In this document: one piece after another, positions 46,946-64,000 of the stretch
Layout of the letters: the number at the start of each line of letters is the position of its first letter
Numbering within the stretch: position 1 is the stretch's first letter
Assembly (NCBI GenBank): GCA_037446635.1
Contig: JBBIIG010000001.1
Span: forward strand, 85,638-149,637
Reading direction: 5' to 3'
DNA: 64,000 nt
Source of the DNA: a bacterium
GTDB lineage: Bacteria > Zhuqueibacterota > Zhuqueibacteria > Oceanimicrobiales > Oceanimicrobiaceae
The notes under the pieces: model-generated
What the model was told of the DNA's origin: nothing
The model's input: only the letters and a program-made list of their open reading frames with translations
Databases searched by the model: none
Translations under genes and position numbers: made by a program

Positions 46946-47485
46946 TTAGGATTGCTCAACAAACACCGGCGCGACAACCGGCATCAAATCGCGCGGCATC
47001 ACGTCATGAAACGAAACCTTCTTTTCCGAATACGCATTGTAGGCGTCGATCAGCTCGCTCAATTGCCGTCCGTGTTCTCTCAAATTCTGCTCGCTGCCAG
47101 CGCCAGCCACCAACTGGCGAATCTCTAAAATCTTGTTGCCGATGCTTTCGAAATAATACTCTGACATGGCCTGGCCAATCAGGTTTTTGACGGCCGCTTC
47201 CGCTTGCTGTTCTTTGTCCTTAAGCGTTTTGATGGTGTTCTTGAGATGGAATTGATTCAGATCCTTGACCAAAGTTACCTTGACGCCAGAGTAGTTAAGA
47301 ACGGCGGGGTGCTTTTTGTAATAGTCCGTTTTCACCGCGACGTTCGTCAACAGATATTGCTCAACAATGACGCGCTCGCCAAAAGTTAAATGCCGATGGG
47401 AGAAGTAGCTCAACAGATTTTCCGTCTGTTTGTAATCCACTTCAATCATTAAATCTGAAGATGAAAAATAAAGTAATTCGGTCAT
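46946..47485 (-). CDS. Hypothetical protein
   Basis: 179-aa ORF filling the gap co-directionally; no motif recognised. Confidence 0.7.
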   Translation of the reverse strand: MTELLYFSSSDLMIEVDYKQTENLLSYFSHRHLTFGERVIVEQYLLTNVAVKTDYYKKHPAVLNYSGVKVTLVKDLNQFHLKNTIKTLKDKEQQAEAAVKNLIGQAMSEYYFESIGNKILEIRQLVAGAGSEQNLREHGRQLSELIDAYNAYSEKKVSFHDVMPRDLMPVVAPVFVEQS

Positions 47486-47487
47486 AG

Positions 47488-47564
47488 CATCACGAGACGT
47501 TTTGGTTTTTGAATGGACGTTGTTTTGTCCAATTTTTACAAACCCTATGCCACGTCTCGTGATG
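47488..47564. repeat. Perfect 13-bp inverted repeat with 51-bp spacer
   Basis: CATCACGAGACGT (47488-47500) and ACGTCTCGTGATG (47552-47564). Confidence 0.85.
47537..47552 (-). promoter_or_regulatory. Sigma-54-like promoter (variant -12)
   Basis: Minus strand TGGCAT-AGGGT-TTGTA. Confidence 0.45.
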
Positions 47565-47683
47565 TCAGTGGGACGATAGATAACTATCTATTTTAGAAAG
47601 TGTTTACTACGCGGGCGGCTTTTGAACTCCTTGTCGATGAAAATGTATTTCAATGATGCAGTTTGATTTTTTTGAGACATTTC

Positions 47684-50074
<2,391 letters not shown>

Positions 50075-50134
50075 GATTCTCTACCTCATTTTTGAGTTGC
50101 CAAAAAGTCATTTAAAAAATACGATGCTCTTTTT

Positions 50135-50150
50135 TGCAACAACCATTCCA
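50135..50150 (-). promoter_or_regulatory. Sigma-54-like promoter upstream of lon
   Basis: Minus strand TGGAAT-GGTTG-TTGCA, 60 bp upstream of the lon ATG. Confidence 0.55.
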
Positions 50151-50240
50151 GAAAAATTAGCGCCGCCGACCGCGCATGTTATTTCAGCAATTAACTGGAG
50201 CAGAAGTATTTTACCGCGGCGCCATTTAGTTCGTCACGCG

Positions 50241-51098
50241 CTAAGTTGGCATGGCTTCGGCGAGGATGTTCGCGCAGCGCTCTAAAACCTCGCGATCGCC
50301 GTCATGAAAGGCGTCCCGCTGGTCGCTGTCGATATCGATTTCTCCCAACACCAGTTCGCCGCGCAGGATAGGCACCACGATCTCGGACTGCGTCTCGATG
50401 CTGCACGCTAAGTAGCGCGGGTCCGCGTTCACGTCCGCCACAATGATGGATTTTTTTTCGCTCGCTGCCGCGCCGCAAATTCCTTTGCCAATAGGAATGC
50501 GCGTGTGTGGACTCGGCTTGCCGATGAAGTTGTGAAGCACGAGCGTCTCCCCTTCCAAAAGGTAAATGCCCACCCAGGTGCACTTTGGAAAGCGTTCTTT
50601 CAGAAGCGCCACTGCTGTTTTTAGAATTTCATCCTTGCCTTTTTTGAGATGGTGAAGCTGCTCGACGATATCCTGCCCCACCAGAAATTCAATCGCGCGA
50701 AAATATCCCCGTATCCCCAATCCGAAAATTTGTTTAGCGCAGACGTCTTTGATTACCGAGCGGCGGCGGAATTCTTCGCGCTGCTCGATGTTGGAAAGAT
50801 GCACTTCGATCGCCGGCAATTTCACGGATTCCAGCGCGTCGCGCAGGGCGTAGCTGTAGTGGCTGTACGCGCCGGGATTGATGACGATGCCTTGCGCCCA
50901 CTGGCGCTGTTCGTGAATGAAATCGATGAGCGCGCCCTCATGATTGGATTGAAAGGTTTTCACTTCGACATTCATTGCAGCGGCAAATTTCACAACCTCC
51001 GCTTCCAGCTCGCGCAGGGTCATGGCGCCGTAAATTTCCGGCTCGCGCTCGCCTAACAGGTTCAAATTGGGTCCATTAATCAGAATAATTTTTTTCAT
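50241..51098 (-). CDS. aroQ: Type II 3-dehydroquinate dehydratase fused to a C-terminal GAF (fRMsr/MsrC-like) domain
   Basis: NGPNLNLLG.REPEIYG, QSNHEG, INPGA, EVHLSN; then WVGIYL, GKGICG, YLACS..SEIVVP and EIDIDS in the same frame. Confidence 0.9.
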   Translation of the reverse strand: MKKIILINGPNLNLLGEREPEIYGAMTLRELEAEVVKFAAAMNVEVKTFQSNHEGALIDFIHEQRQWAQGIVINPGAYSHYSYALRDALESVKLPAIEVHLSNIEQREEFRRRSVIKDVCAKQIFGLGIRGYFRAIEFLVGQDIVEQLHHLKKGKDEILKTAVALLKERFPKCTWVGIYLLEGETLVLHNFIGKPSPHTRIPIGKGICGAAASEKKSIIVADVNADPRYLACSIETQSEIVVPILRGELVLGEIDIDSDQRDAFHDGDREVLERCANILAEAMPT

Positions 51099-51634
51099 AA
51101 ATGACTTCCAATCACACTCAAAATTTCATCAGCGATTTGCTCGGGGGCTTTGCAATCGTCGCATAAAATTTTGAGATCAGCACGCAAATAAAGCTGCTCT
51201 CGTTCCTTAAAAAGTTCTACAACCCGTCGCTTTTTGCTGGTTTCATCATCGCCAAAAATCAACGGCCGCGAATTTCGCAGCAGCCGTTCGGCCAGCGCCG
51301 ACGCCGGCCATTTTAAATAAATCGTCACTCCCGAATTGGAAAGCAATTGCCAACTTTTTGGAGAAAGAATCGCGCCGCCGCCCAGCGCCACAACCGCTTG
51401 CCGCCGACGCGCAACCTCAGTCACCGCCGCGGATTCCATTTCGCGAAAGTAGCGTTCGCCGTATTCGTTAAAAATCTGCGCGATGGCTTGGCCGCTGCGG
51501 CGTTCAATCATTTCATCCGTGTCGAAAAAATCGCGCTTCAATTTTTGGGCAAGCAATTTACCCACCGTGGTTTTGCCCGCGGCCATAAACCCAATCAGAT
51601 AAATGTTATCGTGACTTTTGCTGCCAGCGTTCAT
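51095..51634 (-). CDS. aroK: Shikimate kinase
   Basis: GFMAAGKTT, DTD, GERYFREME, LGGG and RPL motifs. Confidence 0.93.
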   Translation of the reverse strand: MNAGSKSHDNIYLIGFMAAGKTTVGKLLAQKLKRDFFDTDEMIERRSGQAIAQIFNEYGERYFREMESAAVTEVARRRQAVVALGGGAILSPKSWQLLSNSGVTIYLKWPASALAERLLRNSRPLIFGDDETSKKRRVVELFKEREQLYLRADLKILCDDCKAPEQIADEILSVIGSHL

Positions 51635-52790
51635 ACGCCTCTCGAATTTCAGTGACAGAATCGCCGCCGAATTTTTCCAAAAACGCCTCCGCCAAAACCA
51701 GCGCCAAAATCGCCTCACCGATAACGGAGGCCGCCGGCACGGCGCACACGTCGCTGCGTTCGATGTGAGCCGGCGTTTTTTCTTGGCTGATCATATCAAC
51801 GGAATCCAGCGGCTTCATCAACGTGGAGATGGGTTTCATGGCCGCGCGCACCACGATGGGCATGCCGTTCGAGACGCCGCCCTCGATTCCGCCGGCGTGG
51901 TTGCTGGAGCGAAAGTAGATTTTTTTCGCGCCATCAAAACAAATTGGATCGTGCACCTCCGAGCCGAAGCGCGCCGCAGCCTCGAAGCCCCAGCCAATTT
52001 CCACGCCTTTGATGGCCGGGATGCTCATCAGCGCGCCAGCGATGCGGCCGTCCAATTTGCGATCCCAGTGCGCGTAGCTGCCGAGCCCCACGGGAACGTT
52101 TAATGCCGCCACCTCAAACACGCCGCCAACCGTGTCGCCGGCGGCTTTCGCTTCGTCGATGCGCGCCATCATTTCCGCTTCTAATTTTTTAGTGAGACAG
52201 CGTACCGGTGAATCGTCGGCGATTTCGTTCACCAACTCCCATTCGATTTTTTGATCGCGTTGAATCTCCGCCGCTGAAATGCTCGATTTTATCGAATGGA
52301 TTTGTACGACGTGGCTGACAATGAGAATGTTGACTTCGGCTAAAATTTTTTTTGCAATCGCCCCCAGCGCCACCCGCATGGCGGTCTCGCGGGCGCTGGC
52401 GCGTTCCAAAACATTGCGCAGATCGCGGTGGCGGTATTTGATCGCGCCGGCAAAATCGGCGTGCCCGGGGCGCGGGACCGTCACTTCATTTATCTCGTCC
52501 GCGATTTCTGCGACGGACATTTTCGTCTGCCAGTGCTTCCAATCTTTATTTTCAATTTTGAGCGCGATCGGGCTGCCCAGCGTTTTCCCGAAGCGCACGC
52601 CGGAAAGGATGCGCGCGCGGTCGCTTTCAATTTTCATGCGCTGGCCGCGGCCGTAGCCCATTTGCCGGCGCCGCAGCTCGCGCGCGATGTCATCTTCACT
52701 CAAGAATAAACCTGCGGGCACGCCTTCGAGGATTCCGATCAGCGCCTGGCCGTGCGATTCGCCGGCGGTCAAAAATCTAAGCTGGCTCAT
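51606..52790 (-). CDS. aroC: Chorismate synthase
   Basis: TAGESHG, RPGHAD, ERASARET, GGIEGG and MKPIST motifs. Confidence 0.97.
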   Translation of the reverse strand: MSQLRFLTAGESHGQALIGILEGVPAGLFLSEDDIARELRRRQMGYGRGQRMKIESDRARILSGVRFGKTLGSPIALKIENKDWKHWQTKMSVAEIADEINEVTVPRPGHADFAGAIKYRHRDLRNVLERASARETAMRVALGAIAKKILAEVNILIVSHVVQIHSIKSSISAAEIQRDQKIEWELVNEIADDSPVRCLTKKLEAEMMARIDEAKAAGDTVGGVFEVAALNVPVGLGSYAHWDRKLDGRIAGALMSIPAIKGVEIGWGFEAAARFGSEVHDPICFDGAKKIYFRSSNHAGGIEGGVSNGMPIVVRAAMKPISTLMKPLDSVDMISQEKTPAHIERSDVCAVPAASVIGEAILALVLAEAFLEKFGGDSVTEIREAYERWQQKSR

Positions 52791-53658
52791 AATTTTTTAA
52801 TTTTTCGATAAGCAACTTTCTCAAATGCGGGTAAACGGAGTTGGCGTCAATTTCGCGGCCGCTCCAGATTCGCATCGCCGCGATGCCCTGGAAAATCAGC
52901 ATATCCAAACCGTCCATCACCGCTAAACCAGCCGCGCTTGCGGAGCGCAGAAATCGCGTCGGCAGTGGATTGTAGATGAGATCGATGGCGATCAGGTTGT
53001 CGTCCGTTTTCGGAAACTCAAATGGCGCCGCCGCGGAATCCGGCCACATTCCAACTGGCGTGGCGTTGATCACAAAATCCACCGACTCCAACAATTTCAA
53101 GATTTCCGCGTGCTGCAAATTTACCGTGATAAAATTAAAAAAACCACTGGCGCTGCTGAGATGTTCCACCAACTCCAGCGCGCGCACCGTCGTCCGGTTG
53201 GCGAGATAAATTTTTCGGATGCCGCCGCGAATCAGCGCCGCCGCCACCGCCCGCGCCGCGCCGCCCGCCCCTAAAATCAGCGCCTGTTTTTTAGATACCT
53301 CGAGGTTGTGAAACGCCAGCGCGCGCTCGAAGCCAGTGCCGTCGGTGTTAAACCCAAGGAGCCGGTTTTTTTCGTGCAAAACCACATTCACCGCGCCCGC
53401 CCGTTGCGCCCGTTCGTCCAGCTCATCCAGCAGCGAGATAATTTGCTCTTTGAACGGAATGGTTACGCTGAAGCCGCGGATGCCGCCAGCTTTCAGCGCT
53501 CGTATTTTTTCTTCGAATTGTTGCGGTGGAATTTCAAACAATTCAAAGCGGCCATTCAGTTGGATCGCCTCCAGCAGAAATTCGTGCAGCAAAGGCGAAA
53601 GCGAATGCCCGATGGGGTAGCCCACGACGCCGAACGCCAGCGATTTCGGCTTAGCCAC
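52777..53658 (-). CDS. aroE: Shikimate dehydrogenase
   Basis: HSLSP, VTIPFK, AVN, NTD, GAGGAA, NATPVGM and DLIYNP motifs; GTG start. Confidence 0.94.
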   Translation of the reverse strand: MAKPKSLAFGVVGYPIGHSLSPLLHEFLLEAIQLNGRFELFEIPPQQFEEKIRALKAGGIRGFSVTIPFKEQIISLLDELDERAQRAGAVNVVLHEKNRLLGFNTDGTGFERALAFHNLEVSKKQALILGAGGAARAVAAALIRGGIRKIYLANRTTVRALELVEHLSSASGFFNFITVNLQHAEILKLLESVDFVINATPVGMWPDSAAAPFEFPKTDDNLIAIDLIYNPLPTRFLRSASAAGLAVMDGLDMLIFQGIAAMRIWSGREIDANSVYPHLRKLLIEKLKNYEPA

Positions 53659-54934
53659 TGGCAAGTTCCTCCAGCGTTTCAAAAAAATTCGGGAAGCTGA
53701 TGTCCACGCACTGCGCATTTTGAATGACCGTCTCCCCCTCCGCAATCAGACCAGCAACCGCGAAGGCCATGGCGATGCGGTGATCGTTAAAGCTGTCGAT
53801 GGCTGCGCCCCGCAAGCGCACTGGCCCGTGAATGACGAGTCCGTCTTCTTTCTCCAAAACCTCAGCGCCCATTTTCTGCAAATTGCTGTGGAGAGCGGTC
53901 AGGCGATCCGACTCCTTCACGCGCAGCTCGCCGGCGCCGCTGATTTCGGTGACGCCCTCCGCCTGAGTGGCGAGAACGGCGAGAATCGGAATTTCATCGA
54001 TGATCTGCGGAACGAGGTCGCCGCCGATTTTAATGCCGCGCAGGGCCGAGCTTTTAGCGGCGACGTCCGCAAAAAATTCGTTGTTGATGTTGGCAAAATT
54101 GATGATATCGATTTCCGCGCCCATCTCCATCAGCAGCGAAAGAAGCGCCCGGCGCGTGGGGTTGACGCCGACGTTCTCAATCGTAATTCGCGAGCCGCCG
54201 GTTAAAATGGCCGCGGCGATGAGAAAGGCGGCGCTGGAAAGATCGCCGGGAACAAAAACGTGCTGCGCCGTCAACTTCGCCGGGCCGGCGATGGAAATCG
54301 TGGCGCCGTCTTTTCCGATCGTTGCGCCAAAATTTTGCAGCAGGCGCTCGGTGTGATCGCGGGTTGGGAAAGGTTCGACCACGCGCGTCTCACCCTCGGC
54401 AAATAATCCCGCCAGCAGCACGCACGATTTCACTTGCGCGCTGGCCACGGGCAGCGAATAGGAAATTGGCGAAAGTTTGCCGCCGCGGATGGTCAGCGGT
54501 GCAAACGCATCGTTTTCTGCGTAAATTTGCGCGCCCATTTGCCGCAGCGGCTGCACGATGCGCGTCATCGGCCGGCGGCGAATGCTGGCGTCGCCGGTGA
54601 GGGTGGTTTCAAAAGGCTGCCCGGCGAGCAGCCCGCTCAGCAAACGAATCGTGGTACCGGAATTTCCAACATTTAAAATTTCTTTCGGCGAAGAAAAGCC
54701 GAACAGGCCTTTTCCAAAAACACAGGCCGCGCCATTTTTAAATTCAAACTTTGCTCCCAATTTTTGCAAACAGGCAAGCGTGCTTTTCACGTCCGCGGCG
54801 GGGGATAGATTTTCGATTTCAGTCACCCCCTCCGCCAGCGCCGCGATCATCAGCGCGCGGTGGGAAATGGATTTGTCACCGGGGAGCCGGAGTGCGCCAT
54901 TTAAGTTTTTCTTCGGGGAAATGATTTTAGTCAT
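53651..54934 (-). CDS. aroA: EPSP synthase (class II)
   Basis: PGDKSISHR, GNSGTT, SAQVKS, RDHTE, RVKESDR and DHRIAM motifs. Confidence 0.97.
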   Translation of the reverse strand: MTKIISPKKNLNGALRLPGDKSISHRALMIAALAEGVTEIENLSPAADVKSTLACLQKLGAKFEFKNGAACVFGKGLFGFSSPKEILNVGNSGTTIRLLSGLLAGQPFETTLTGDASIRRRPMTRIVQPLRQMGAQIYAENDAFAPLTIRGGKLSPISYSLPVASAQVKSCVLLAGLFAEGETRVVEPFPTRDHTERLLQNFGATIGKDGATISIAGPAKLTAQHVFVPGDLSSAAFLIAAAILTGGSRITIENVGVNPTRRALLSLLMEMGAEIDIINFANINNEFFADVAAKSSALRGIKIGGDLVPQIIDEIPILAVLATQAEGVTEISGAGELRVKESDRLTALHSNLQKMGAEVLEKEDGLVIHGPVRLRGAAIDSFNDHRIAMAFAVAGLIAEGETVIQNAQCVDISFPNFFETLEELASG

Positions 54935-54943
54935 TTTCGATGA

Positions 54944-55825
54944 TCAGATTACTTTTTCGTTTCGGAAAAGAAGACGGCCCTGCGCCGCAGTTTGAAAATA
55001 GCCGGCTAATTCTGCATCAGAAATTTTCTTTTTGAAAAGCTGCAGCTCGGCAATAAAGCCATCGATGGCATCGACAACGTTGTTTTGATTGGCAGCAAAA
55101 ATATCGCGCCAGATATTGAACGAGCTTTCGGCCAAGCGGGTGCAATCGCGAAACCCAGCGGCCGCCAGACTGAAGTGAGCGGGCTCCGTTTGGTTGAGCC
55201 GATACGCGTAATTCATCAACGCCGTAGCCAAAATCTGCGGCAGGTGACTGATGTTCGCCACCACGCGATCATGCAATCGCGCCGGCATCATCAGCGGCTT
55301 TGCGCCGATGGCTTCAATCAACTGCGTCAAACCGGCCACCAACTCTGCCGGGGCGTCCGAATCTTCGTCGATCACGTACACCGCATTTTTAAACAAATCG
55401 GCATTGGCGTGTTGGAATCCGCTTTTTTCCGAACCGGCCATCGGGTGGCCTCCCAAAAAATAAACGCCCCGGGGGAGGCGTTTTTTTGCGGCAGCAACAA
55501 TCACTTCTTTGACGCTGCCCACATCGGTGATGAGCGCGCCGGTTTGTGCGGAGTCGGCGACAAGCGGAAGCCAGTTCAAAATCTCTCGAATCGGCGCGGC
55601 AAGAATAACTAAGTCCGCGCGCGACAAACAGCGCTTGCTGCCCGCCAGGTCCCCCAGTGCGCAGCCATCGGTGACGACCTCCGTCGCTAGCGCTTTTTGA
55701 ATGACGCCGTCGCAATCAATGGCGCTCACTTTTGCCGCGCCGCCAAATTTTTTAAACGCCGCCGCCAGCGAGCCGCCAATCAGGCCCAATCCAATTATTA
55801 AAATTTCTCTGAACGGCAAAATCAA
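54944..55825 (-). CDS. tyrA: Prephenate/arogenate dehydrogenase
   Basis: GLGLIGGS, DVGSVK, GGHPMAGSE, HD...SHLPQ and GFRD.TRLA motifs. Confidence 0.93.
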   Translation of the reverse strand: MILPFREILIIGLGLIGGSLAAAFKKFGGAAKVSAIDCDGVIQKALATEVVTDGCALGDLAGSKRCLSRADLVILAAPIREILNWLPLVADSAQTGALITDVGSVKEVIVAAAKKRLPRGVYFLGGHPMAGSEKSGFQHANADLFKNAVYVIDEDSDAPAELVAGLTQLIEAIGAKPLMMPARLHDRVVANISHLPQILATALMNYAYRLNQTEPAHFSLAAAGFRDCTRLAESSFNIWRDIFAANQNNVVDAIDGFIAELQLFKKKISDAELAGYFQTAAQGRLLFRNEKVI

Positions 55826-55878
55826 ACTTTCTCAATTTTTGAAATAATAAAAAACCGCTGCGACATGATCAAGCAAAA

Positions 55879-56892
55879 TTACCAGCGCTGGTTGATGGCC
55901 TTCGCGATGATTTTTAGCTCTGCCATCAATTGTCGAAATTGCTCGGGGTAAAGCGACTGTGCGCCGTCGGAAAGCGCTTGCTCTGGCTGGTTGTGCACTT
56001 CGATCAAAAGTCCGTGAGCGCCGGCGGCAATGGCGGCGCGCGCCATCGGCGCCACTTTATCGCGGCGGCCGGTGGCGTGGCTGGGGTCGGCGATAATCGG
56101 CAAGTGGCTGAGCTTCTTAACAATCGGGATGGCCGAAATATCGAGCGTGCTGCGGGTGTAGTTCTCGAAGGTGCGGATACCGCGCTCACAGAGGATGACC
56201 TGGTAATTTCCGCCGGCCATGATGTACTCCGCCGCCATCAACATTTCTTCGATGGTCGCCGCCAGGCCGCGTTTCAGCAGCACCGGCTTGCGGATTTTTC
56301 CTAACTCGCGCAGCAGAGAAAAATTCTGCATGTTGCGCGCGCCCACTTGCAAAATGTCCACGTATTCCACCAGCAGCGGGATGTGCTGGCTTTCCATCAC
56401 TTCGGAGACGCTGACCATGCCATTTTCGCGAGCGGCTTCCCGCAGCCAGCGCAAGCCTTGTTCGCCCAGCCCCTGAAAACTGTAGGGTGAGGTGCGCGGC
56501 TTAAAGGCGCCGCCCCGCAGCACGGCGGCGCCGCTCTGTCGCACCAATTTGGCAATCGCGTGAATTTGTTGCGCGGTTTCAACCGAACACGGTCCGGCCA
56601 TCATCACCAGGCGATCGCCGCCGATCTCCACGCCGCCGATTTTGATCACCGTATCCTCGGGATGAAACGTGCGGCTGCTGAGTTTGTAGGGCTCGGTGAT
56701 CGGCACAACTTTATGTACGCCCGGCAGCACCTCCAGCATTCGCGAATCCAGGCCGCGCTTGTCGCCGATGGCCCCCAGAACCGTTTGATTCACTCCCGTT
56801 GAGCGGTGAACATCGAATTTCATCTCGGTCAATTTTGCAATGACGTTTTGAATCTCGTCTTCCGAAGCGATTTCTTCCATAACCACGACCAT
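55879..56892 (-). CDS. aroF: DAHP synthase type I-beta with N-terminal ACT-like regulatory domain
   Basis: AGPCSVE, KPRTSPYSFQG, GARNMQN, CERGIRTF, DPSH and SDG motifs. Confidence 0.95.
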   Translation of the reverse strand: MVVVMEEIASEDEIQNVIAKLTEMKFDVHRSTGVNQTVLGAIGDKRGLDSRMLEVLPGVHKVVPITEPYKLSSRTFHPEDTVIKIGGVEIGGDRLVMMAGPCSVETAQQIHAIAKLVRQSGAAVLRGGAFKPRTSPYSFQGLGEQGLRWLREAARENGMVSVSEVMESQHIPLLVEYVDILQVGARNMQNFSLLRELGKIRKPVLLKRGLAATIEEMLMAAEYIMAGGNYQVILCERGIRTFENYTRSTLDISAIPIVKKLSHLPIIADPSHATGRRDKVAPMARAAIAAGAHGLLIEVHNQPEQALSDGAQSLYPEQFRQLMAELKIIAKAINQRW

Positions 56893-56896
56893 AGGT

Positions 56897-57193
56897 TCAC
56901 TCCATTTTATTTGGTTTGTTAGTTTGAGAGGCCAAAATATCTTTTTCAAGCTTGCGCGATTCGTCGATGATACGCTCGAAAACCCGGCGCACGCCGTCGT
57001 CGCTCATCGGACCGGAATTTTCGTCCATCAGCCGCTGGATGATTCGGGCCTCGCGATCCGGCGAGTAAATTGGCAAAAGCAGTTCCTTTTTGAGATGCGC
57101 GATTTCGATGGAGTATTTTGCCCGCTCGTTCAAGCAGCGCAAAATTTTCAAATCGATGTCATCGATGCGGGCGCGCCAGTTTTCAATATCCAT
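56897..57193 (-). CDS. Monofunctional chorismate mutase (type II)
   Basis: R.RID.ID..IL..LNERA...IA.LK...REARII pattern. Confidence 0.9.
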   Translation of the reverse strand: MDIENWRARIDDIDLKILRCLNERAKYSIEIAHLKKELLLPIYSPDREARIIQRLMDENSGPMSDDGVRRVFERIIDESRKLEKDILASQTNKPNKME

Positions 57194-57195
57194 GT

Positions 57196-57996
57196 TCAAA
57201 CTCCTGCGATTGCGTTTTTCATTTCGTAAACAAATTGTTTCGCGGCGGTCAGCGCTTCGGCGTCATTTGCAGTGCGGGAAATTAAATCTACCAAAGCGCT
57301 GCCGATGATGACGCCGTGGCAGAGACGGGCAATTTCCCGGGCTTGTTGCGAAGTCGATATCCCAAAGCCCACCAGGTAAGGATGCCGAGCGATTTTGGAA
57401 ACGGTTTGCAGGAAATTCTGCAGGCCGCGATCCAGGCTTTGTCGGGCGCCGGTGACGCCGGTAAGGGAGACACAATAGAGAAAATCCCGCGTCAGATTGT
57501 CCACTGTCAAAATGCGTTCCGCGCTGGAATTGGGCGCAACCAAAAAATTGACGCCGACGCCGCTTTCATCAAAATGCGATTTGAAATTGAGATACTCCTC
57601 CGGGAGTAAATCCGGGATGATGAGTCCGGCCGCTCCGCTGGAGCGCACATCGCGCAAAAACTCCGGCAAACCGTAACTCAAAATTGGATTGAGATAACTC
57701 ATCACAATCAGCGGTGCAGAACATTCCTCCCGCATCGTTGCAACTTGCTGCAAAATTGTTTTCAATGTGATGCCGTTCTCCAATGCGATCATCGATGCTC
57801 GTTGAATGGTCGGGCCGTCGGCGAGGGGGTCGGAAAAGGGCACGCCAATTTCGATCAAGTCCGCGCCGGCCTCGGCGATGGCGAACGCCAATTCAGTTGT
57901 GCTCTGCAGCTTCGGATAGCCCGCAGGTAAAAAGATCGCAAGCAGCTTCTCGCTTTTTTCAATTTTTTGTTGCAAGAATTTTGTAAGACGAGTCAC
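57196..57996 (-). CDS. trpA: Tryptophan synthase alpha
   Basis: [27 protein letters not shown] and IGSA motifs. Confidence 0.97.
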
Positions 57997-59198
57997 TCTT
58001 TCAATTCCTCCAGTTGCGACTGCACCAGCGCCACGTCTTTATCGCCGCGACCGGAAAGGCAAATCACAATGCTTTGATCGCGGCGCGTGGCCGGCGCAAG
58101 TTTGACCACTTCCGCCACCGCGTGCGCCGACTCCAACGCCGGAATAATGCCTTCCAACTGAGCCAACTTTTTGAACGCCGCCAGCGCTTCGGCGTCGGTA
58201 GCCGAAGAATAGCGAACACGCTTTGAGTCTTTCAGAAAACTGTGTTCTGGCCCGACGCCCGGGTAATCCAGACCGGCTGAAATGGAATGCGCTTCGTTAA
58301 TTTGGCCAGCATCGTTTTGCAGCAAATAGCTCAGGGCGCCGTGCAAAACTCCCGGACGGCCGGCGCTGAGCGTGGCAGCGTGCCGCAGCGAACCTATTCC
58401 CGAGCCGCCGGCTTCAACGCCGACGAGCTGAACCTCATCTTCCAGAAACGGATGAAACAGGCCGATGGCGTTGCTGCCGCCGCCCACGCAAGCAACGAGG
58501 TAATCGGGCAACTTTTTTTGGTCGGCAAAAAATTGGCAGCGGGTTTCGCGGCCGATGACGGCTTGAAAATCCCGCACCATCATCGGGTAGGGGTGCGGCC
58601 CCACCACGGAGCCAATCAGATAAAAAGTGTCGCACACATTGGTCACCCAATCGCGGATGGCTTCGTTGATGGCGTCTTTGAGCGTGCGGCTCCCGGAAGT
58701 CACAGGAATCACGTCGGCGCCCAACAAGCGCATGCGAAACACGTTAAGCTGCTGGCGGCGGGTGTCTTCTTCACCCATGTAAATCGCGCATTGTAATCCA
58801 AACTTGGCTGCGGCCGTGGCGACCGCCACGCCGTGCTGTCCGGCTCCGGTCTCAGCGATGATTCGATGTTTTCGCATTCGCTTTGCGAGCAAAATTTGGC
58901 CGATAGCGTTGTTGATTTTGTGAGCGCCGGTGTGATTCAAATCTTCCCGTTTTAGAAAAATCTTCGCGCCGCCCAATTCCGCGGTGAGGCGATGGGCAAA
59001 GGTCAGCGGCGTGGGCCGGCCGGCGTAGCGCTTCAGATAAAAATCCAATTCGTGCTGAAATTCAGCGTCAGACCGTGCAAATAAATACGCTTGCTGCAGT
59101 TCCATCAACGCTGGCGCTAAAATTTCCGGGACAAACTTTCCACCGTACGCACCGAAGTAGCCGCGCGCGTCCGGGAGATCATAGGGTTGATTGAACAT
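57993..59198 (-). CDS. trpB: Tryptophan synthase beta
   Basis: [31 protein letters not shown] and LSGRGDKD motifs. Confidence 0.98.
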
Positions 59199-59805
59199 GT
59201 TTCCGAATTTCTCCCAAAAAAGAGCTTAGCTTGTGCGGATCTTTTTTTCCGGGATATGCCTCCACCCCACTGCTAACGTCCACCGCGTACGGTTGCGCCG
59301 TCCGCAGCGCCGCGATGACATTGCCGGCGTGCAAACCGCCGGCAAGAACGATGTTGCCGTAGCGGTTGGCGTCGCGGGCTAGTCGCCAATCGAAACACAC
59401 GCCGGTGCCGCCGTACATGTCGTCAACGTCAGCATCGAGAACAAAGCCCGCGATGTGATAGTCCCGCAACCACTGGAGATTAAAATTTGATTTTACTCGA
59501 AAGGCTTTTAACACCGGCCGCGAAAGGTGATGGCAGTAATCCGCGCTCTCGTCGCCGTGCAATTGAATGAGATCAAGTGGTAAGCGCTGGCAGAGTCGGT
59601 TTAAATCGCCCAGCGGCAGGTTTACAAACACGCCGACTTTGGCGACAAACGGCGGCAGCTTTCTCATAATCGCGTCAGCGCGCTGGGGTTCGACGTAGCG
59701 CGGGCTCGGTTTGTGAAAAACAAATCCCAACGCATCGGCGCCCAACTCGCAGGCCAACAGGGCGTCTTCCAAATTAGTGATGCCGCAAATTTTCACCTTG
59801 ACCAT
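59179..59805 (-). CDS. trpF: Phosphoribosylanthranilate isomerase
   Basis: KICGIT, QLHGDE, GGTG, LAGGL and DVSSGVE motifs. Confidence 0.96.
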
Positions 59806-60590
59806 TTGCGCACCCCAACGAATTGTTGCAGAGCCGCGCCGACGTCCGGCGCGCGCACCAGCGCTTCGCCAATCAAAACCGCATCGACTCCCAGTTTTCC
59901 CAGCCGTTCCACGTGCTCGCGATCTTTGACGCCGCTCTCCGACACCACCGTGACGCCGCTGGGAATATGCGCCAATAGTTTTTCAGTCGTCGCCAGATCT
60001 ACCTTGAAATTCATTAGATTTCGGTTGTTGATGCCAATCAGTTTGAACCGGCTGGAAATGGCGCGCTCCAATTCCTCGCGCTCATGAACTTCGACCAGCG
60101 TTTCGAGGAGACACTCCCGCGCCGTGTGCATCAATTCCAGAAAAAGTTGCGGCGGCAACAGATTCAGAATCAACAGCACCGCATCCGCGCCATAAGCTCG
60201 GGCTTCAATGATTTGATAGGGATCGATGATAAAATCTTTTCGCAGCAGCGGCAAGGACGAACGCTGGCGAATTTTAGAGAGATAATTTCGATTGCCGGCA
60301 AAATATTTTTCGTCGGTCACAACCGAGATCGCCTGCGCGCCATTTTTACTGTAGGCCTGCGCAATGGCCACGGGATCGAAGTCGGCGCGCAGGATACCGG
60401 CGGACGGCGAGGCTTTTTTCACTTCAGCAATGACCGCGACCACATTTTTGTGACTCAATTGCGGCGAAAACGGCCGCGGCGGCGGGCTCTGTTTTATCAG
60501 CCCCCAAAGCGTGGAGAGTTGCACCTCGCGCTTGCTTTTGCGCACCTCCAGTTTTTTGTGTTTGATGATGATGTCCAAAATCGTTGGCAT
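59793..60590 (-). CDS. trpC: Indole-3-glycerol phosphate synthase
   Basis: IAEVKKASPSAG, LRKDFI, GINNRNL and SESG motifs. Confidence 0.96.
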   Translation of the reverse strand: MPTILDIIIKHKKLEVRKSKREVQLSTLWGLIKQSPPPRPFSPQLSHKNVVAVIAEVKKASPSAGILRADFDPVAIAQAYSKNGAQAISVVTDEKYFAGNRNYLSKIRQRSSLPLLRKDFIIDPYQIIEARAYGADAVLLILNLLPPQLFLELMHTARECLLETLVEVHEREELERAISSRFKLIGINNRNLMNFKVDLATTEKLLAHIPSGVTVVSESGVKDREHVERLGKLGVDAVLIGEALVRAPDVGAALQQFVGVRKWSR

Positions 60591-60591
60591 G

Positions 60592-61605
60592 TCACAGCTC
60601 GTGGGAAAGTTTTTTTAGCGCTTCGAATTTTTGCGCTGCGGCGCCGGAGTCAATCGCCGCCATCGCCATTTGCGCGCCTTCTTTGAAATCGCTTGCCAGG
60701 CCTGCCACCAAGAACCCGCACGCCGCATTGCAGACGACGATGTCCCGCGCCGCGCCTTTTTCTCCGCGCAAAACCGTTTTGACGATGGCGGCGTTTTCCG
60801 CGGGTGTCCCGCCCGTCACGCCATTGTCGGTACGCGCTCGCAGTCCAAAATCTTGGGGCGAAATGCTGCGTTCGGAAATGACGCCATCTTTCAACTCAAT
60901 CATATTCGTCGGCTGGCAAACGGAGACTTCATCGAGACCGTCCTCGCTGTGGACGATGAGAACATGCTGCGCGCCCAACTCTTTCAACACCTCCGCCACG
61001 AAACGCGCCGCTGCCGCACTATAAACGCCCAACACTTGATGCTGGACGCCCGCCGGATTGGTGAGCGGACCGAGTAGGTTGAAAACCGTGCGCACCCCGA
61101 TTTCCCGGCGCGGCGCAACCGCATGTTTCATGGCTGGGTGCAGCATCGGCGCAAACAGAAACGCGACGCCGATTTCATCGAGACAGCGGCTCACTTGCTG
61201 CGCGTTCAAATCGATCTTCACGCCCAACTCTTCTAGCAAATCGGCGCTGCCGCAGCGACTGGAAACCGAACGGTTGCCGTGCTTCGCCACCACCGCACCG
61301 CCGGCCGCCGCCACCAACGACGCCACGGTTGAAATATTGAAGGTGCCGCGGCCATCGCCGCCGGTGCCGCACATGTCGATGGCGTTAGCATGGTGCGTGG
61401 TTACCGGCGTCGCTTTTTCGCGCATGGCGCGGGCAAAGCCGGCGACTTCGGGGCAGGTCTCCCCTTTCAACTTCTCGGCCACTAAAAACGCGGCGATTTG
61501 CGCCGGTGTGGCCTGCCCGGCCATGATGGTGTTCATCACGTCATAAGCTTGCTGAGTGTTCAAATCCTGGCCGTCGATGAGCAGACGAATGATTTCTTGA
61601 ATCAT
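60592..61605 (-). CDS. trpD: Anthranilate phosphoribosyltransferase
   Basis: CGTGGDG..TFNIST, KHGNRSVSS and NLLGPLTNP motifs. Confidence 0.96.
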   Translation of the reverse strand: MIQEIIRLLIDGQDLNTQQAYDVMNTIMAGQATPAQIAAFLVAEKLKGETCPEVAGFARAMREKATPVTTHHANAIDMCGTGGDGRGTFNISTVASLVAAAGGAVVAKHGNRSVSSRCGSADLLEELGVKIDLNAQQVSRCLDEIGVAFLFAPMLHPAMKHAVAPRREIGVRTVFNLLGPLTNPAGVQHQVLGVYSAAAARFVAEVLKELGAQHVLIVHSEDGLDEVSVCQPTNMIELKDGVISERSISPQDFGLRARTDNGVTGGTPAENAAIVKTVLRGEKGAARDIVVCNAACGFLVAGLASDFKEGAQMAMAAIDSGAAAQKFEALKKLSHEL

Positions 61606-62186
61606 GAGCGGTCTCCGCGAGTTTGACACACTTTCAAAAAATTCGCTAAAATTTTTTTGCCCGCGATTGTTAGGATGGATTCCGGATGAAATTGTACCCC
61701 GTACAGCGGATAGCTTCGATGTTGTAAACCCATGATGAGATGATCGTCGGTTTCAGCGGTTACAACCAACTCAGCCGGCAGAGTCGTTCGTTCCACAATC
61801 AACGAGTGATAACGGGTGGCAATAAACGGATTGGCAATCCCCGCAAACAAGTTTAGACTGTTGTGATAAATGAGCGAGGTTTTGCCGTGCATCAGTTTCG
61901 GGGCGGAAACGATGCGCCCGCCGAAGGCATAACCAATCGCCTGATGCCCCAAACACACGCCAAGGATCGGTTTCAACGGCGCGATCTCTCCAATCAAGTT
62001 TACGCACATGCCCGCCTGCTCCGGACGGCCGGGACCGGGGGAAATCACAATTCCTGAGGCACGGATCTTTTTTAAATCAAGTTCAGGATCATCGTTTCTG
62101 ACGACCTGCACTTCGGCGCCCAACTCGCCCAAATACTGCACGAGATTAAAGGTGAACGAGTCGTAGTTGTCGATAACTAAAATCAC
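61602..62186 (-). CDS. trpG: Anthranilate synthase component II
   Basis: IDNYDSFT, SPGPG, GVCLGHQ, RYHSL and QFHPES motifs; GTG overlaps the trpE stop. Confidence 0.95.
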   Translation of the reverse strand: MILVIDNYDSFTFNLVQYLGELGAEVQVVRNDDPELDLKKIRASGIVISPGPGRPEQAGMCVNLIGEIAPLKPILGVCLGHQAIGYAFGGRIVSAPKLMHGKTSLIYHNSLNLFAGIANPFIATRYHSLIVERTTLPAELVVTAETDDHLIMGLQHRSYPLYGVQFHPESILTIAGKKILANFLKVCQTRGDRS

Positions 62187-63658
62187 CTTAATCCTCCTTC
62201 GGCAAAATCGATGGCAGCTTGCAGGGCCGCCGCTTTGTGAATGGTTTCCTGAAATTCTCGTTCCGGAATCGAATCGGCAACGACGCCCGCGCCGGCTTGA
62301 AAGTAAGCCTGCGGCCCCTGCGTCACGATGGTGCGGATGGCGATGCAAGTATCCAAATTTCCACAGAAATCGAGGTAACCAATTGCGCCGGCATAAATCC
62401 CGCGGCCTTCCGGCTCCAGTTCGCTGATGATTTCCATGGCGCGAATTTTAGGCGCGCCGGTAACCGTGCCCGCGGGAAAACAGGACGCCAGCGCCTCGAT
62501 CGCGGAAAGGCCGTTCCGCAATTTCCCACTAACGTTGGACACCAGGTGCATGACATGCGAGTATTTTTCGACAGACTTGAAATTGGTTACGCTCACGGAA
62601 CCGGCCTGCGCGACGCGGCCAACGTCGTTGCGGCCCAAATCCACCAACATTACGTGCTCGGCGATCTCCTTTTCATCGCTCAAAAGATTTTGCGCAAAGC
62701 GGTCGTCCTCATCGGCATCTTGGCCGCGCGGCCGGGTGCCGGCAATCGGCCGGACTTCCACCACGCCGTCTTCCACTCGTATTAGAAGCTCCGGCGACGA
62801 GCCGATGATGCAGGCGTCGTTCATTTTGAGAAAATATAAATAGGGCGAGGGGTTGATGAGCCGCAGGGCGCGGTAAATGTCTAGAGGGTCGGCGTGGATG
62901 GCGCGTTGGAATTTTTGCGAGAGCACCACTTGAAAAATGTCGCCGGCGCGGATGTACTTTTGCGCAGCGACCACCGCGCGGCAGAAATCGGCTTCACTAA
63001 AATTGCAGGAAACAGCGGAGAGAGCGGCCTTCGGTGGTAACGTGCGCGGGGGATTGCGGTCCAGCATTTTTTCAATGTCGGCGATTTTTGTTAATGCGTC
63101 TTCGAACTGGCTGGCGAGGGAACGGGCGCTGTCCAAAAAAACATTGGCGACGATGTAGATCAAGTGGCGGAAGTGATCGAAGATTAAGACGGTATCGAAA
63201 AACATGAACAGCGCGTTGGGCAGGTTCACGCCCTTCGGTTTTTGAGTGGGAATGTTTTCGAGCACACGCGCCGTTTCATAGCTCAAAAAACCGACGGCGC
63301 CGCCGGTGAAGCGCGGCAGCCCGGCGGCGCGCACGCCTCTAAATTTTTGAAACGTTTTTTTCAAATACTGGAAGATGTTTTCGCCGGCGGCCGTTGTTCT
63401 GCCTTCGCGCTCCTCAAAAATTTTATCTCCGCGCATTCGAACCGTCAGGAATGGTTGGCAGCCAAGAAACGAATAGCGTGCGTATTTCTCTCCGCCTTCG
63501 ACGCTCTCCAAAAGAAACGCGGGCGCGCCGGCGGTTTGCAGCCGCATCAAAGCCGAGACCGGAGTCAGCAGATCCGCGAGGCGAGTGGCGTAAACCGGAA
63601 TCACGTTGCCTAATTTTGCCAGCTTTTGAAATTCCGAGAACGGCAGCGATGGAATCAT
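62183..63658 (-). CDS. trpE: Anthranilate synthase component I
   Basis: LLES, GDIFQVVLS, NPSPY, PIAGT, EHVMLVDLGRND and GAPKIRAM motifs. Confidence 0.97.
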   Translation of the reverse strand: MIPSLPFSEFQKLAKLGNVIPVYATRLADLLTPVSALMRLQTAGAPAFLLESVEGGEKYARYSFLGCQPFLTVRMRGDKIFEEREGRTTAAGENIFQYLKKTFQKFRGVRAAGLPRFTGGAVGFLSYETARVLENIPTQKPKGVNLPNALFMFFDTVLIFDHFRHLIYIVANVFLDSARSLASQFEDALTKIADIEKMLDRNPPRTLPPKAALSAVSCNFSEADFCRAVVAAQKYIRAGDIFQVVLSQKFQRAIHADPLDIYRALRLINPSPYLYFLKMNDACIIGSSPELLIRVEDGVVEVRPIAGTRPRGQDADEDDRFAQNLLSDEKEIAEHVMLVDLGRNDVGRVAQAGSVSVTNFKSVEKYSHVMHLVSNVSGKLRNGLSAIEALASCFPAGTVTGAPKIRAMEIISELEPEGRGIYAGAIGYLDFCGNLDTCIAIRTIVTQGPQAYFQAGAGVVADSIPEREFQETIHKAAALQAAIDFAEGGLR

Positions 63659-63670
63659 TTTTTCGGCCTT

Positions 63671-63708
63671 AAAATAAAAAACCCACTATATAGAGTTATA
63701 TAGTGGGT
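63671..63708 (-). terminator. Attenuator terminator upstream of trpE
   Basis: Minus strand ACCCACTATATA-actc-TATATAGTGGGT (12-bp perfect stem) followed by TTTTTATTTT, ending 12 nt before the trpE ATG. Confidence 0.88.
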
Positions 63709-63737
63709 CGGATGAGCGTTACGTTATGGGGTTCGAT

Positions 63738-63830
63738 TTACGGGCTTGATTGGCGCGTAGCCTTCCCACTATTGGCCGGATACCAATACCAGTAATACCA
63801 ATAATTTTTCGTGGAAAGATTCAGCGTCAT
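63738..63830 (-). CDS. Trp/Tyr-rich leader peptide (30 aa)
   Basis: MTLNLSTKNYWYYWYWYPANSGKATRQSSP*, located between the promoter and the terminator; too short for the ORF track. Confidence 0.88.
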   Translation of the reverse strand: MTLNLSTKNYWYYWYWYPANSGKATRQSSP

Positions 63831-63854
63831 TTTATACCCAAAAAATTTAAGGCG

Positions 63855-63883
63855 AATATAACGAAAGCTGAGAATTTTGTCAA
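63855..63883 (-). promoter_or_regulatory. Sigma-70 promoter of the aromatic superoperon
   Basis: Minus strand TTGACA-N17-TATATT, 24 bp upstream of the leader ATG. Confidence 0.8.
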
Positions 63884-63884
63884 G

Positions 63885-64000
63885 CTAATTTTGCTGTGCT
63901 GGCGGTTTTGGTGGCTCGGCCGCCTTTTTATCGAGCGCGTTCAAACTTCCTACTAAAACTTTTTGGACGGTCACCGGCTCCACGACGTGCCACTGCTGGA
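63885..64000 (-). CDS. Probable 3' end of an unidentified upstream gene
   Basis: Open frame from the window edge, QQWHVVEPVTVQKVLVGSLNALDKKAAEPPKPPAQQN*, stopping just before the -35 box. Confidence 0.45.
   Translation of the reverse strand, partial: QQWHVVEPVTVQKVLVGSLNALDKKAAEPPKPPAQQN

Follow-up and report, generated by a model that had tools for sequence, protein, structure and literature searches.

The window, by which we mean the whole 64,000-nucleotide stretch of DNA analyzed here, comes from a genome (G000) of 4.64 Mb that is 97% complete and carries, on its minus strand, a short leader followed by a tightly packed series of genes for aromatic amino acid biosynthesis in the order trpEGDCFBA-CM-aroF-tyrA-aroAECKQ, where CM stands for chorismate mutase. 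The features of this locus are listed below.

63855..63883, minus strand: sigma70-type promoter, TTGACA-N17-TATATT, 11 of 12 consensus matches
63738..63830, minus strand: leader peptide ORF of 30 codons, MTLNLSTKNYWYYWYWYPANSGKATRQSSP, with homologous ORFs in relatives
63811..63818, minus strand: segment 1 (CUUUCCAC), 5' arm of the outer protector helix 1:2, from the MFE fold and covariation
63780..63803, minus strand: control codons 10-17, YWYYWYWY (TAT TGG TAT TAC TGG TAT TGG TAT)
63770..63803, minus strand: inner 1:2 hairpin, UAUUGG (63803-63798 or 63788-63783) with CCAAUA (63775-63770)
63762..63772, minus strand: segment 2 (AUAGUGGGAAG), 3' arm of 1:2 and 5' arm of the antiterminator 2:3
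63697..63709, minus strand: segment 3, 5' arm of the terminator, partner of segment 2 or segment 4
63671..63692, minus strand: segment 4 and U tract of the intrinsic terminator
62183..63658, minus strand: trpE, anthranilate synthase component I (TIGR00564, above cut-off)
57196..62174, minus strand: trpG, trpD, trpC, trpF, trpB, and trpA, each above an NCBIfam cut-off
54944..57193, minus strand: chorismate mutase (CM), DAHP synthase (aroF), and prephenate dehydrogenase (tyrA), from NCBIfam
50241..54934, minus strand: aroA, aroE, aroC, aroK, and aroQ (fused to a C-terminal domain), from NCBIfam, with aroK below cut-off
47684..50074, minus strand: lon protease, which follows aroQ in seven family relatives too

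Among the genes downstream of trpE, the start codons of trpG and trpD are our own choice; the DAHP synthase scores above its NCBIfam cut-off, and the assignments of CM (E 5e-19) and tyrA (E 3e-67) are best hits below cut-off. From the spacing of the genes, we infer that the trp, aro, and tyrA genes are co-transcribed, and a terminator scan of 47400-63660 gave no excess over shuffled sequences (29 versus 31.5). The lon gene may or may not lie on the same transcript; weak promoter-like sites are present in the 167-nt gap between aroQ and lon. The aroQ gene (50241-51098 of the window, minus strand) carries a fused C-terminal domain of about 140 amino acids, likewise found after aroQ in relatives, which may be a GAF domain. 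No pheA is present in this operon, and neither HMM nor tblastn searches found one in the G000 assembly, which may reflect gene loss or an assembly gap. On the other side of the leader, mutL and an unknown 363-amino-acid gene (63885-64000 of the window; L412 523-3314, minus strand) end 2 nt before the -35 box, and because no minus-strand terminator is found there, read-through from the upstream genes may also enter the leader.

The first-pass annotation of this DNA had read the leader as a dual Trp- and Tyr-sensing attenuator, and the elements that it named all lie at the stated positions. The promoter is found at 63883-63855, where a scan detected 2 promoter-like sites in 701 nt compared to 0.5 in shuffles, and the 30-codon ORF with eight consecutive Trp/Tyr codons is found at 63830-63738, with five Tyr, three Trp, and no Phe codons at positions 10-17. 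This YWYYWYWY stretch exceeds every other Trp/Tyr run in the six frames of the 4.64-Mb genome, where only three runs of at least five exist; in long ORFs, the frequency of Trp or Tyr is 0.040 per codon. The leader peptide has no NCBIfam match, and its exact sequence is absent from the protein collection searched. An intrinsic terminator, previously given as 12 bp, occupies 63709-63680 with 13 pairs (12 Watson-Crick and one G-U), a 4-nt loop, and a U6-A-U4 tract, and stands 13 nt before the trpE ATG at 63658. As proposed, AUAGUGGG (63772-63765) can pair with CCCACUAU, its complement in the 5' arm of this terminator, to give an antiterminator. The UAUUGG/CCAAUA hairpin that had been suggested as the protector exists too, but it forms just the interior of a more extended 1:2 hairpin and covers only AUA at the start of the 8-nt antiterminator strand; the main protector, missed earlier, is the outer helix formed by CUUUCCAC (63818-63811) and GUGGGAAG (63769-63762), which covers the core of that strand. 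Segment 2 is itself part of the coding sequence, the stop codon following about 25 nt later. The local energies of helices 1:2, 2:3, and 3:4 are -18.4, -15.8, and -17.0 kcal/mol, respectively, and the whole leader folds at -46.7 kcal/mol (z -2.59; 3 of 200 shuffles equally good). Rfam gave no match in the window at the gathering threshold and, at E<=10, only three weak, unrelated matches in 63600-64000; the leader belongs to no Rfam leader family, including Trp_leader (RF00513).

We collected 20 family relatives, 16 of which have a full trpE. A leader with Trp and Tyr codons is present at all 16, directly upstream of trpE in 15; in the remaining one (G011), leader and trpE are about 590 nt apart, and the interval holds a tRNA-Trp gene and a broken ORF. 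This tRNA-Trp(CCA) gene (L122 5580-5653, minus strand) is situated between the leader-terminator and trpE and may itself be under attenuation. Another relative, G010, lacks a large internal portion of trpE and has only trpG after it (L184); its retained leader carries Trp and Phe codons, with no Tyr in the control zone. A TrpE-based scan of genome contigs found a Trp+Tyr leader only at the three closest of 80 loci (64-65% identity), the rest being distant and having Trp-only ORFs at most, and two Zixibacteria loci with the same gene order (L037, L057) showed no such leader in a scan of their upstream DNA. A metagenome scan with a terminator pattern was unspecific: trp genes stood behind the hairpin at only 3 of 80 loci with DNA, one with a Trp+Tyr leader (L245), one with a WWW leader (L246), and L243 as the third.

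An alignment of 33 homologues from five families, from which five leaders of family f5 were excluded since their helices differ, shows that the ORF and its start codon are conserved and that a similar promoter-like site lies at most 110 nt upstream of the leader start in all 33 homologues examined. Compensatory changes are found in all three mutually exclusive helices. In helix 1:2 (the CUUUCCAC/GUGGGAAG region), 80% of the cells are paired and 20 changed on both sides; the corresponding values are 81% and 39 for helix 2:3 and 91% and 58 for helix 3:4. The inner UAUUGG/CCAAUA hairpin, formed with the second UAUUGG copy, also covaries (77% of cells paired, 20 double changes). Each of 1:2, 2:3, and 3:4 beat all 500 shuffles on pairing and double changes and all slid controls on pairing, with the caveat that the shuffle test is inflated by kinship and that a structure derived from a single member usually outscores slid controls. 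Run by itself, RNAalifold identified no helix other than the terminator.

The alignment also bears on a reading in which the nascent peptide is the sensor: recognition of a free aromatic amino acid within the tunnel of the ribosome would cause a TnaC-like arrest, which then drives the same RNA switch. The peptide does appear to be conserved around the control codons (L-S-T and S-G-K), yet these two motifs are the two arms of helix 1:2. Moreover, the S-G-K encoded by segment 2 in most leaders is replaced by V-G-R or V-G-K in four of them (G003, G019, G020, and G015), so that segment 2 is conserved in two reading frames; RNA, not peptide, is therefore under selection, whereas a TnaC-type element would have its peptide conserved independently of RNA pairing. 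In addition, comparable RNA layouts occur with peptides of unrelated type (His, Cys, or Phe/Tyr), and an arrest induced by the product would presumably turn a biosynthetic operon on in excess, which is the wrong sign. Taken together, we regard such a peptide sensor as very improbable.

We also compared codon set and operon content at trpE loci. Of 73 loci classified, 7 were dropped because they had no leader ORF near trpE, 3 because the ORF was not credible, and 15 because the contig ends before the operon could be classed; a further 3 operons with trp genes plus aroF only (Tyr counts of 0, 1, and 0) were also set aside. At least two Tyr codons are found in the control zone of 19 out of 20 operons that join trp genes to CM, aroF, or tyrA, compared to 1 out of 25 trp-only operons; the exceptions are the superoperon of G012, with one Tyr codon in the zone, and the trp-only operon of G067, with two. 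Among relatives, Tyr codons thus go with the content of the operon. On a quick IQ-TREE phylogeny of TrpE, the operon type changes at least four times, and all four independent pairs agree with the trend, although four contrasts are too few for significance (sign test, p=0.125).

These data can be set against the possibility that the attenuator answers Trp only, with the Tyr codons kept for pairing or arising by slippage of the TATTGG repeat. Consistent with a role in pairing, the Tyr codons lie in the covarying inner hairpin and are biased to UAU (86 versus 15 UAC in the 33 leaders), and there is a precedent in the AroR leader of Corynebacterium glutamicum, in which Tyr is reportedly without effect (according to the accessible part of PMC11802643). 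However, in the trp-only operons of G158, G032, G058, and G049, which belong to the clade sharing the homologous RNA, the helices are kept and the Tyr cluster is gone (G037 retains one Tyr), and Tyr codons dominate the leaders of aro-tyrA operons that contain no trp gene. Since Tyr codons track operon content, pairing alone does not predict the pattern, and we consider a Trp-only response unlikely. The preference for wobble-read codons in the 33 leaders extends to Phe (UUU:UUC 33:7); UAU and UAC are about even in the ORFs of G000.

The absence of Phe codons, which the first-pass annotation had noted, holds for the G000 leader but is no trait of the element, as Phe is present in the control zone of 12 out of 18 family and order leaders. 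Where a genome has a pheA hit, 19 of 21 mixed leaders include Phe codons, against 1 of 5 where it has none; this comparison is post hoc, made among kin and on incomplete genomes, and we treat it as a lead only. Among 12 pheA loci examined, 5, all within the family, have a Phe-rich leader and hairpin of their own, which argues that the Phe branch is controlled apart. These Phe-rich leaders with terminators (L178 and L180-L183) precede pheA clusters that include aminotransferase and/or DAHP-synthase-like genes; no such cluster was detected in G000.

A covariance model of the leader alignment extended this picture to the class, with matches in 70 of 125 genomes (a tally that includes the unpublished G163; none of our conclusions depends on G159 or G163). 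We examined 43 places, namely, 40 of the 45 new ones, two weak hits in G000, and the hit in G011; at one of the 43, the operon was not classifiable. All seven leaders before CM-aroF(-tyrA-aro) operons without trp genes have 2 to 7 Tyr and 1 to 5 Phe codons, with no Trp in six and a single one in G158, and all 23 leaders before trpB2 operons have 3 to 6 Trp codons and at most one Tyr. In each of five genomes (G158, G107, G025, G059, and G137), one operon has a Trp leader and another has a Tyr/Phe leader; in G158, the Trp leader stands on trp and the Phe/Tyr leader on CM-aroF. At the CM-aroF(-tyrA) loci of G058, G037, and G049, no aromatic leader with start codon and terminator was found; therefore, not every split operon gains a leader. 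Between Trp leader and trpB2, a gene for a protein of about 245 amino acids, SbnI-like in family f4, turns up repeatedly (L370, L377, L380, L381, L384, and others), and its product may supply phosphoserine to TrpB2.

The same layout is also found with codons for other amino acids. In family f4, four leaders (L407, from G028:C2:55098 onward, L369, L379, and L383), in genomes where trpE was not found, precede CM, the SbnI-like gene, trpB2, aroF, and tyrA and contain Trp, Tyr, and Phe codons plus two or three His codons. Because these His codons suggested a search, hisG, hisC, hisB, and hisH were located after aroQ in G028, the one of the four f4 loci checked for his genes. G146 has a His-rich leader with a single Trp before trpB2 plus his genes, and four His-rich leaders stand before hisG, one of them in G000 (L366, G000:C45:16119-16282, minus strand), where a leader and terminator of the same layout precede hisG-hisD. 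Two Cys-rich leaders with intrinsic terminators are found at cysteine synthase loci, one in G000 (L365, G000:C4:33234-33408, minus strand; cysteine synthase) and one in G022 (L386; sulfurtransferase-cysteine synthase), and are candidate cysteine attenuators. A common origin of the His and Cys leaders and the aromatic leaders is our reading of weak scores (E 2e-4 to 0.05) and should be taken as tentative. A possible further attenuator lies in G000:C97 (L411, about 1370-1250, minus strand), where a short Cys-Cys ORF, a GUGGG segment, and a CCCAC/GUGGG terminator precede a TonB-dependent receptor gene.

How a ribosome on the leader might set the switch was modeled in two ways. In the first model (A), the RNA behind the ribosome is held unavailable and the transcript ends in the terminator loop; here, stalling at codons up to 18 of the G000 leader favors 2:3, and from codon 19 on it does not. 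Across the 33 leaders, a stall favors upstream pairing of the terminator arm at 94 of 96 Trp codons and 104 of 106 Tyr codons, and the zone in which it does so holds 53 of 70 Phe codons, compared to 305 of 677 other codons. The 'free' and 'stop' conditions of this 33-leader scan counted any upstream pairing, were too noisy, and were discarded. In the second model (B), the RNA behind the ribosome is free to pair around it, and the result differs: in G000, 1:2 prevails when the ribosome stalls at codons 14-17 (P 0.83-0.99), and over codons 8-17 the value for 2:3 never exceeds 0.31, whereas trpL, pheL, and thrL of Escherichia coli retain the switch at most control codons. The control codons are thus placed so that a stall frees the antiterminator in model A and not in model B; given a 41-nt loop and a 30-nt footprint, closing 1:2 around a stalled ribosome is probably not sterically feasible. 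Once the terminator is complete, the equilibrium structure is always 3:4, so that read-through requires 2:3 to form first.

This equilibrium preference, together with the weak Shine-Dalgarno-like GGGU of the G000 leader, would also fit a constitutive terminator behind an ORF that is untranslated or incidental, or that encodes a small independent peptide, with control left to a protein or another ligand. Yet the ORF, its start codon, the promoter, and the alternative helices are conserved in 33 homologues, the codons match the content of the operon, no TrpR, TRAP, or T-box was found, and Rfam offered no match, which together make this explanation improbable. As to the individual regulators, TrpR was not found in G000, and searches of this 97% complete genome, with positive controls, detected neither the T-box RNA (RF00230) nor the TRAP gene (PF02081) on which T-box- or TRAP-dependent attenuation would rely.

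The favored explanation is ribosome-mediated attenuation, in which leader translation, ribosome stalling, the sequence of folding events, and termination, along with the answer to Tyr, are inferred to proceed as follows. RNA polymerase would start near 63848, as judged from the promoter, and the leader would be translated. When charged tRNAs are plentiful, the ribosome would pass segment 2 and reach the stop codon, covering segment 2 on its way; segment 2 would then re-pair with segment 1 behind the ribosome, 3:4 would form, and transcription would end near 63675. An untranslated leader should fold into 1:2 plus 3:4 and terminate too. When Trp-tRNA or Tyr-tRNA is short, the ribosome is expected to stall in codons 10-17 and block 1:2, and the segment 2 freed in this way would capture segment 3 before segment 4 is made, allowing the trp, shikimate, and tyrA genes to be transcribed. 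The leader would then act as an OR gate for Trp-tRNA and Tyr-tRNA.

The sequence elements expected of a classical attenuator are found at this locus: a short leader ORF with clustered codons for end products of the pathway, an intrinsic terminator between leader and first gene, a conserved antiterminator exclusive with that terminator, and a 1:2 protector that sequesters the antiterminator strand. Judging from sequence comparison, we are very probably dealing with a real, conserved leader-peptide attenuator, and it is probably a classical ribosome-mediated transcription attenuator sensing both Trp-tRNA and Tyr-tRNA. The first-pass reading is in this sense supported, for Trp and probably also for Tyr, by anatomy, conservation, covariation, and the match between codons and operon. 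A broader proposal, to which we give slightly better than an even chance, is that one lineage-wide attenuator scaffold truly senses tRNA-Tyr and tRNA-Trp and has its codon cassette rewritten when operons fuse or split, the cassettes being Trp; Tyr/Phe; Trp+Tyr; His+Trp; His+Trp+Tyr+Phe; His; and Cys. In such a case, the series would show how multivalent attenuators evolve, and the Trp-or-Tyr gate would be a tyrosine-responsive ribosomal attenuator for which we found no experimental precedent. With the five-Tyr leader and its sister leaders, which differ mainly in codon cassette, an E. coli reporter could probe directly both the sensing of Tyr-tRNA and attenuation with several inputs. Further, the codon set can serve as an annotation tool in an uncultured lineage, as it predicted his genes in one operon (G028).

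The best-known relative in mechanism is the E. coli trpL-trpE attenuator, reportedly the work of Yanofsky. Like the leader described here, trpL (NC_000913.3) has a short ORF with Trp codons before trpE, the alternative helices 1:2, 2:3, and 3:4, and a terminator with a U tract, and it behaves in the same way in a stall scan when the RNA behind the ribosome is unavailable. In contrast, our leader has 30 codons with eight control codons of two kinds, places segment 2 inside the ORF, has no Rfam match (RF00513), and precedes an operon that adds CM, aroF, tyrA, and the shikimate genes. Multivalent attenuators are known from E. coli, where thrL (Thr+Ile) and the ilv leaders likewise match two kinds of control codons to end products of one operon, but with other amino acids, another RNA sequence, and no aromatic codons.

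Among aromatic leaders, pheL-pheA of E. coli shares the long run of control codons and the same logic (in the portion of PMC3082878 available to us), but pheL has Phe only, and the family of the window has pheA with its own Phe-rich leader elsewhere in the genome. The leader aroR of C. glutamicum, first noted in PMC4046766 as far as the consulted part of that paper indicates, carries Phe-Tyr-Phe before aroF and is thus a mixed aromatic precedent, including Tyr, before a DAHP synthase under ribosome-mediated attenuation; according to the same part of PMC11802643, it answers Phe and reportedly not Tyr (Neshat et al. 2014, as cited there), and it has no Trp, a single Tyr codon compared to five here, and no trp genes behind it. 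No published Trp+Tyr attenuator was found in our literature search, which was incomplete, and such a leader is absent from the portions seen of PMC1262725, PMC2659441, PMC6892785, and PMC3082878. Within these sources, Tyr is the aromatic amino acid for which we found no demonstrated ribosomal attenuator, the nearest case being AroR. Compared to these known systems, the mechanism proposed here is textbook, the codon pair is unusual, and the natural series linking codon cassette to operon content is unusually clear.
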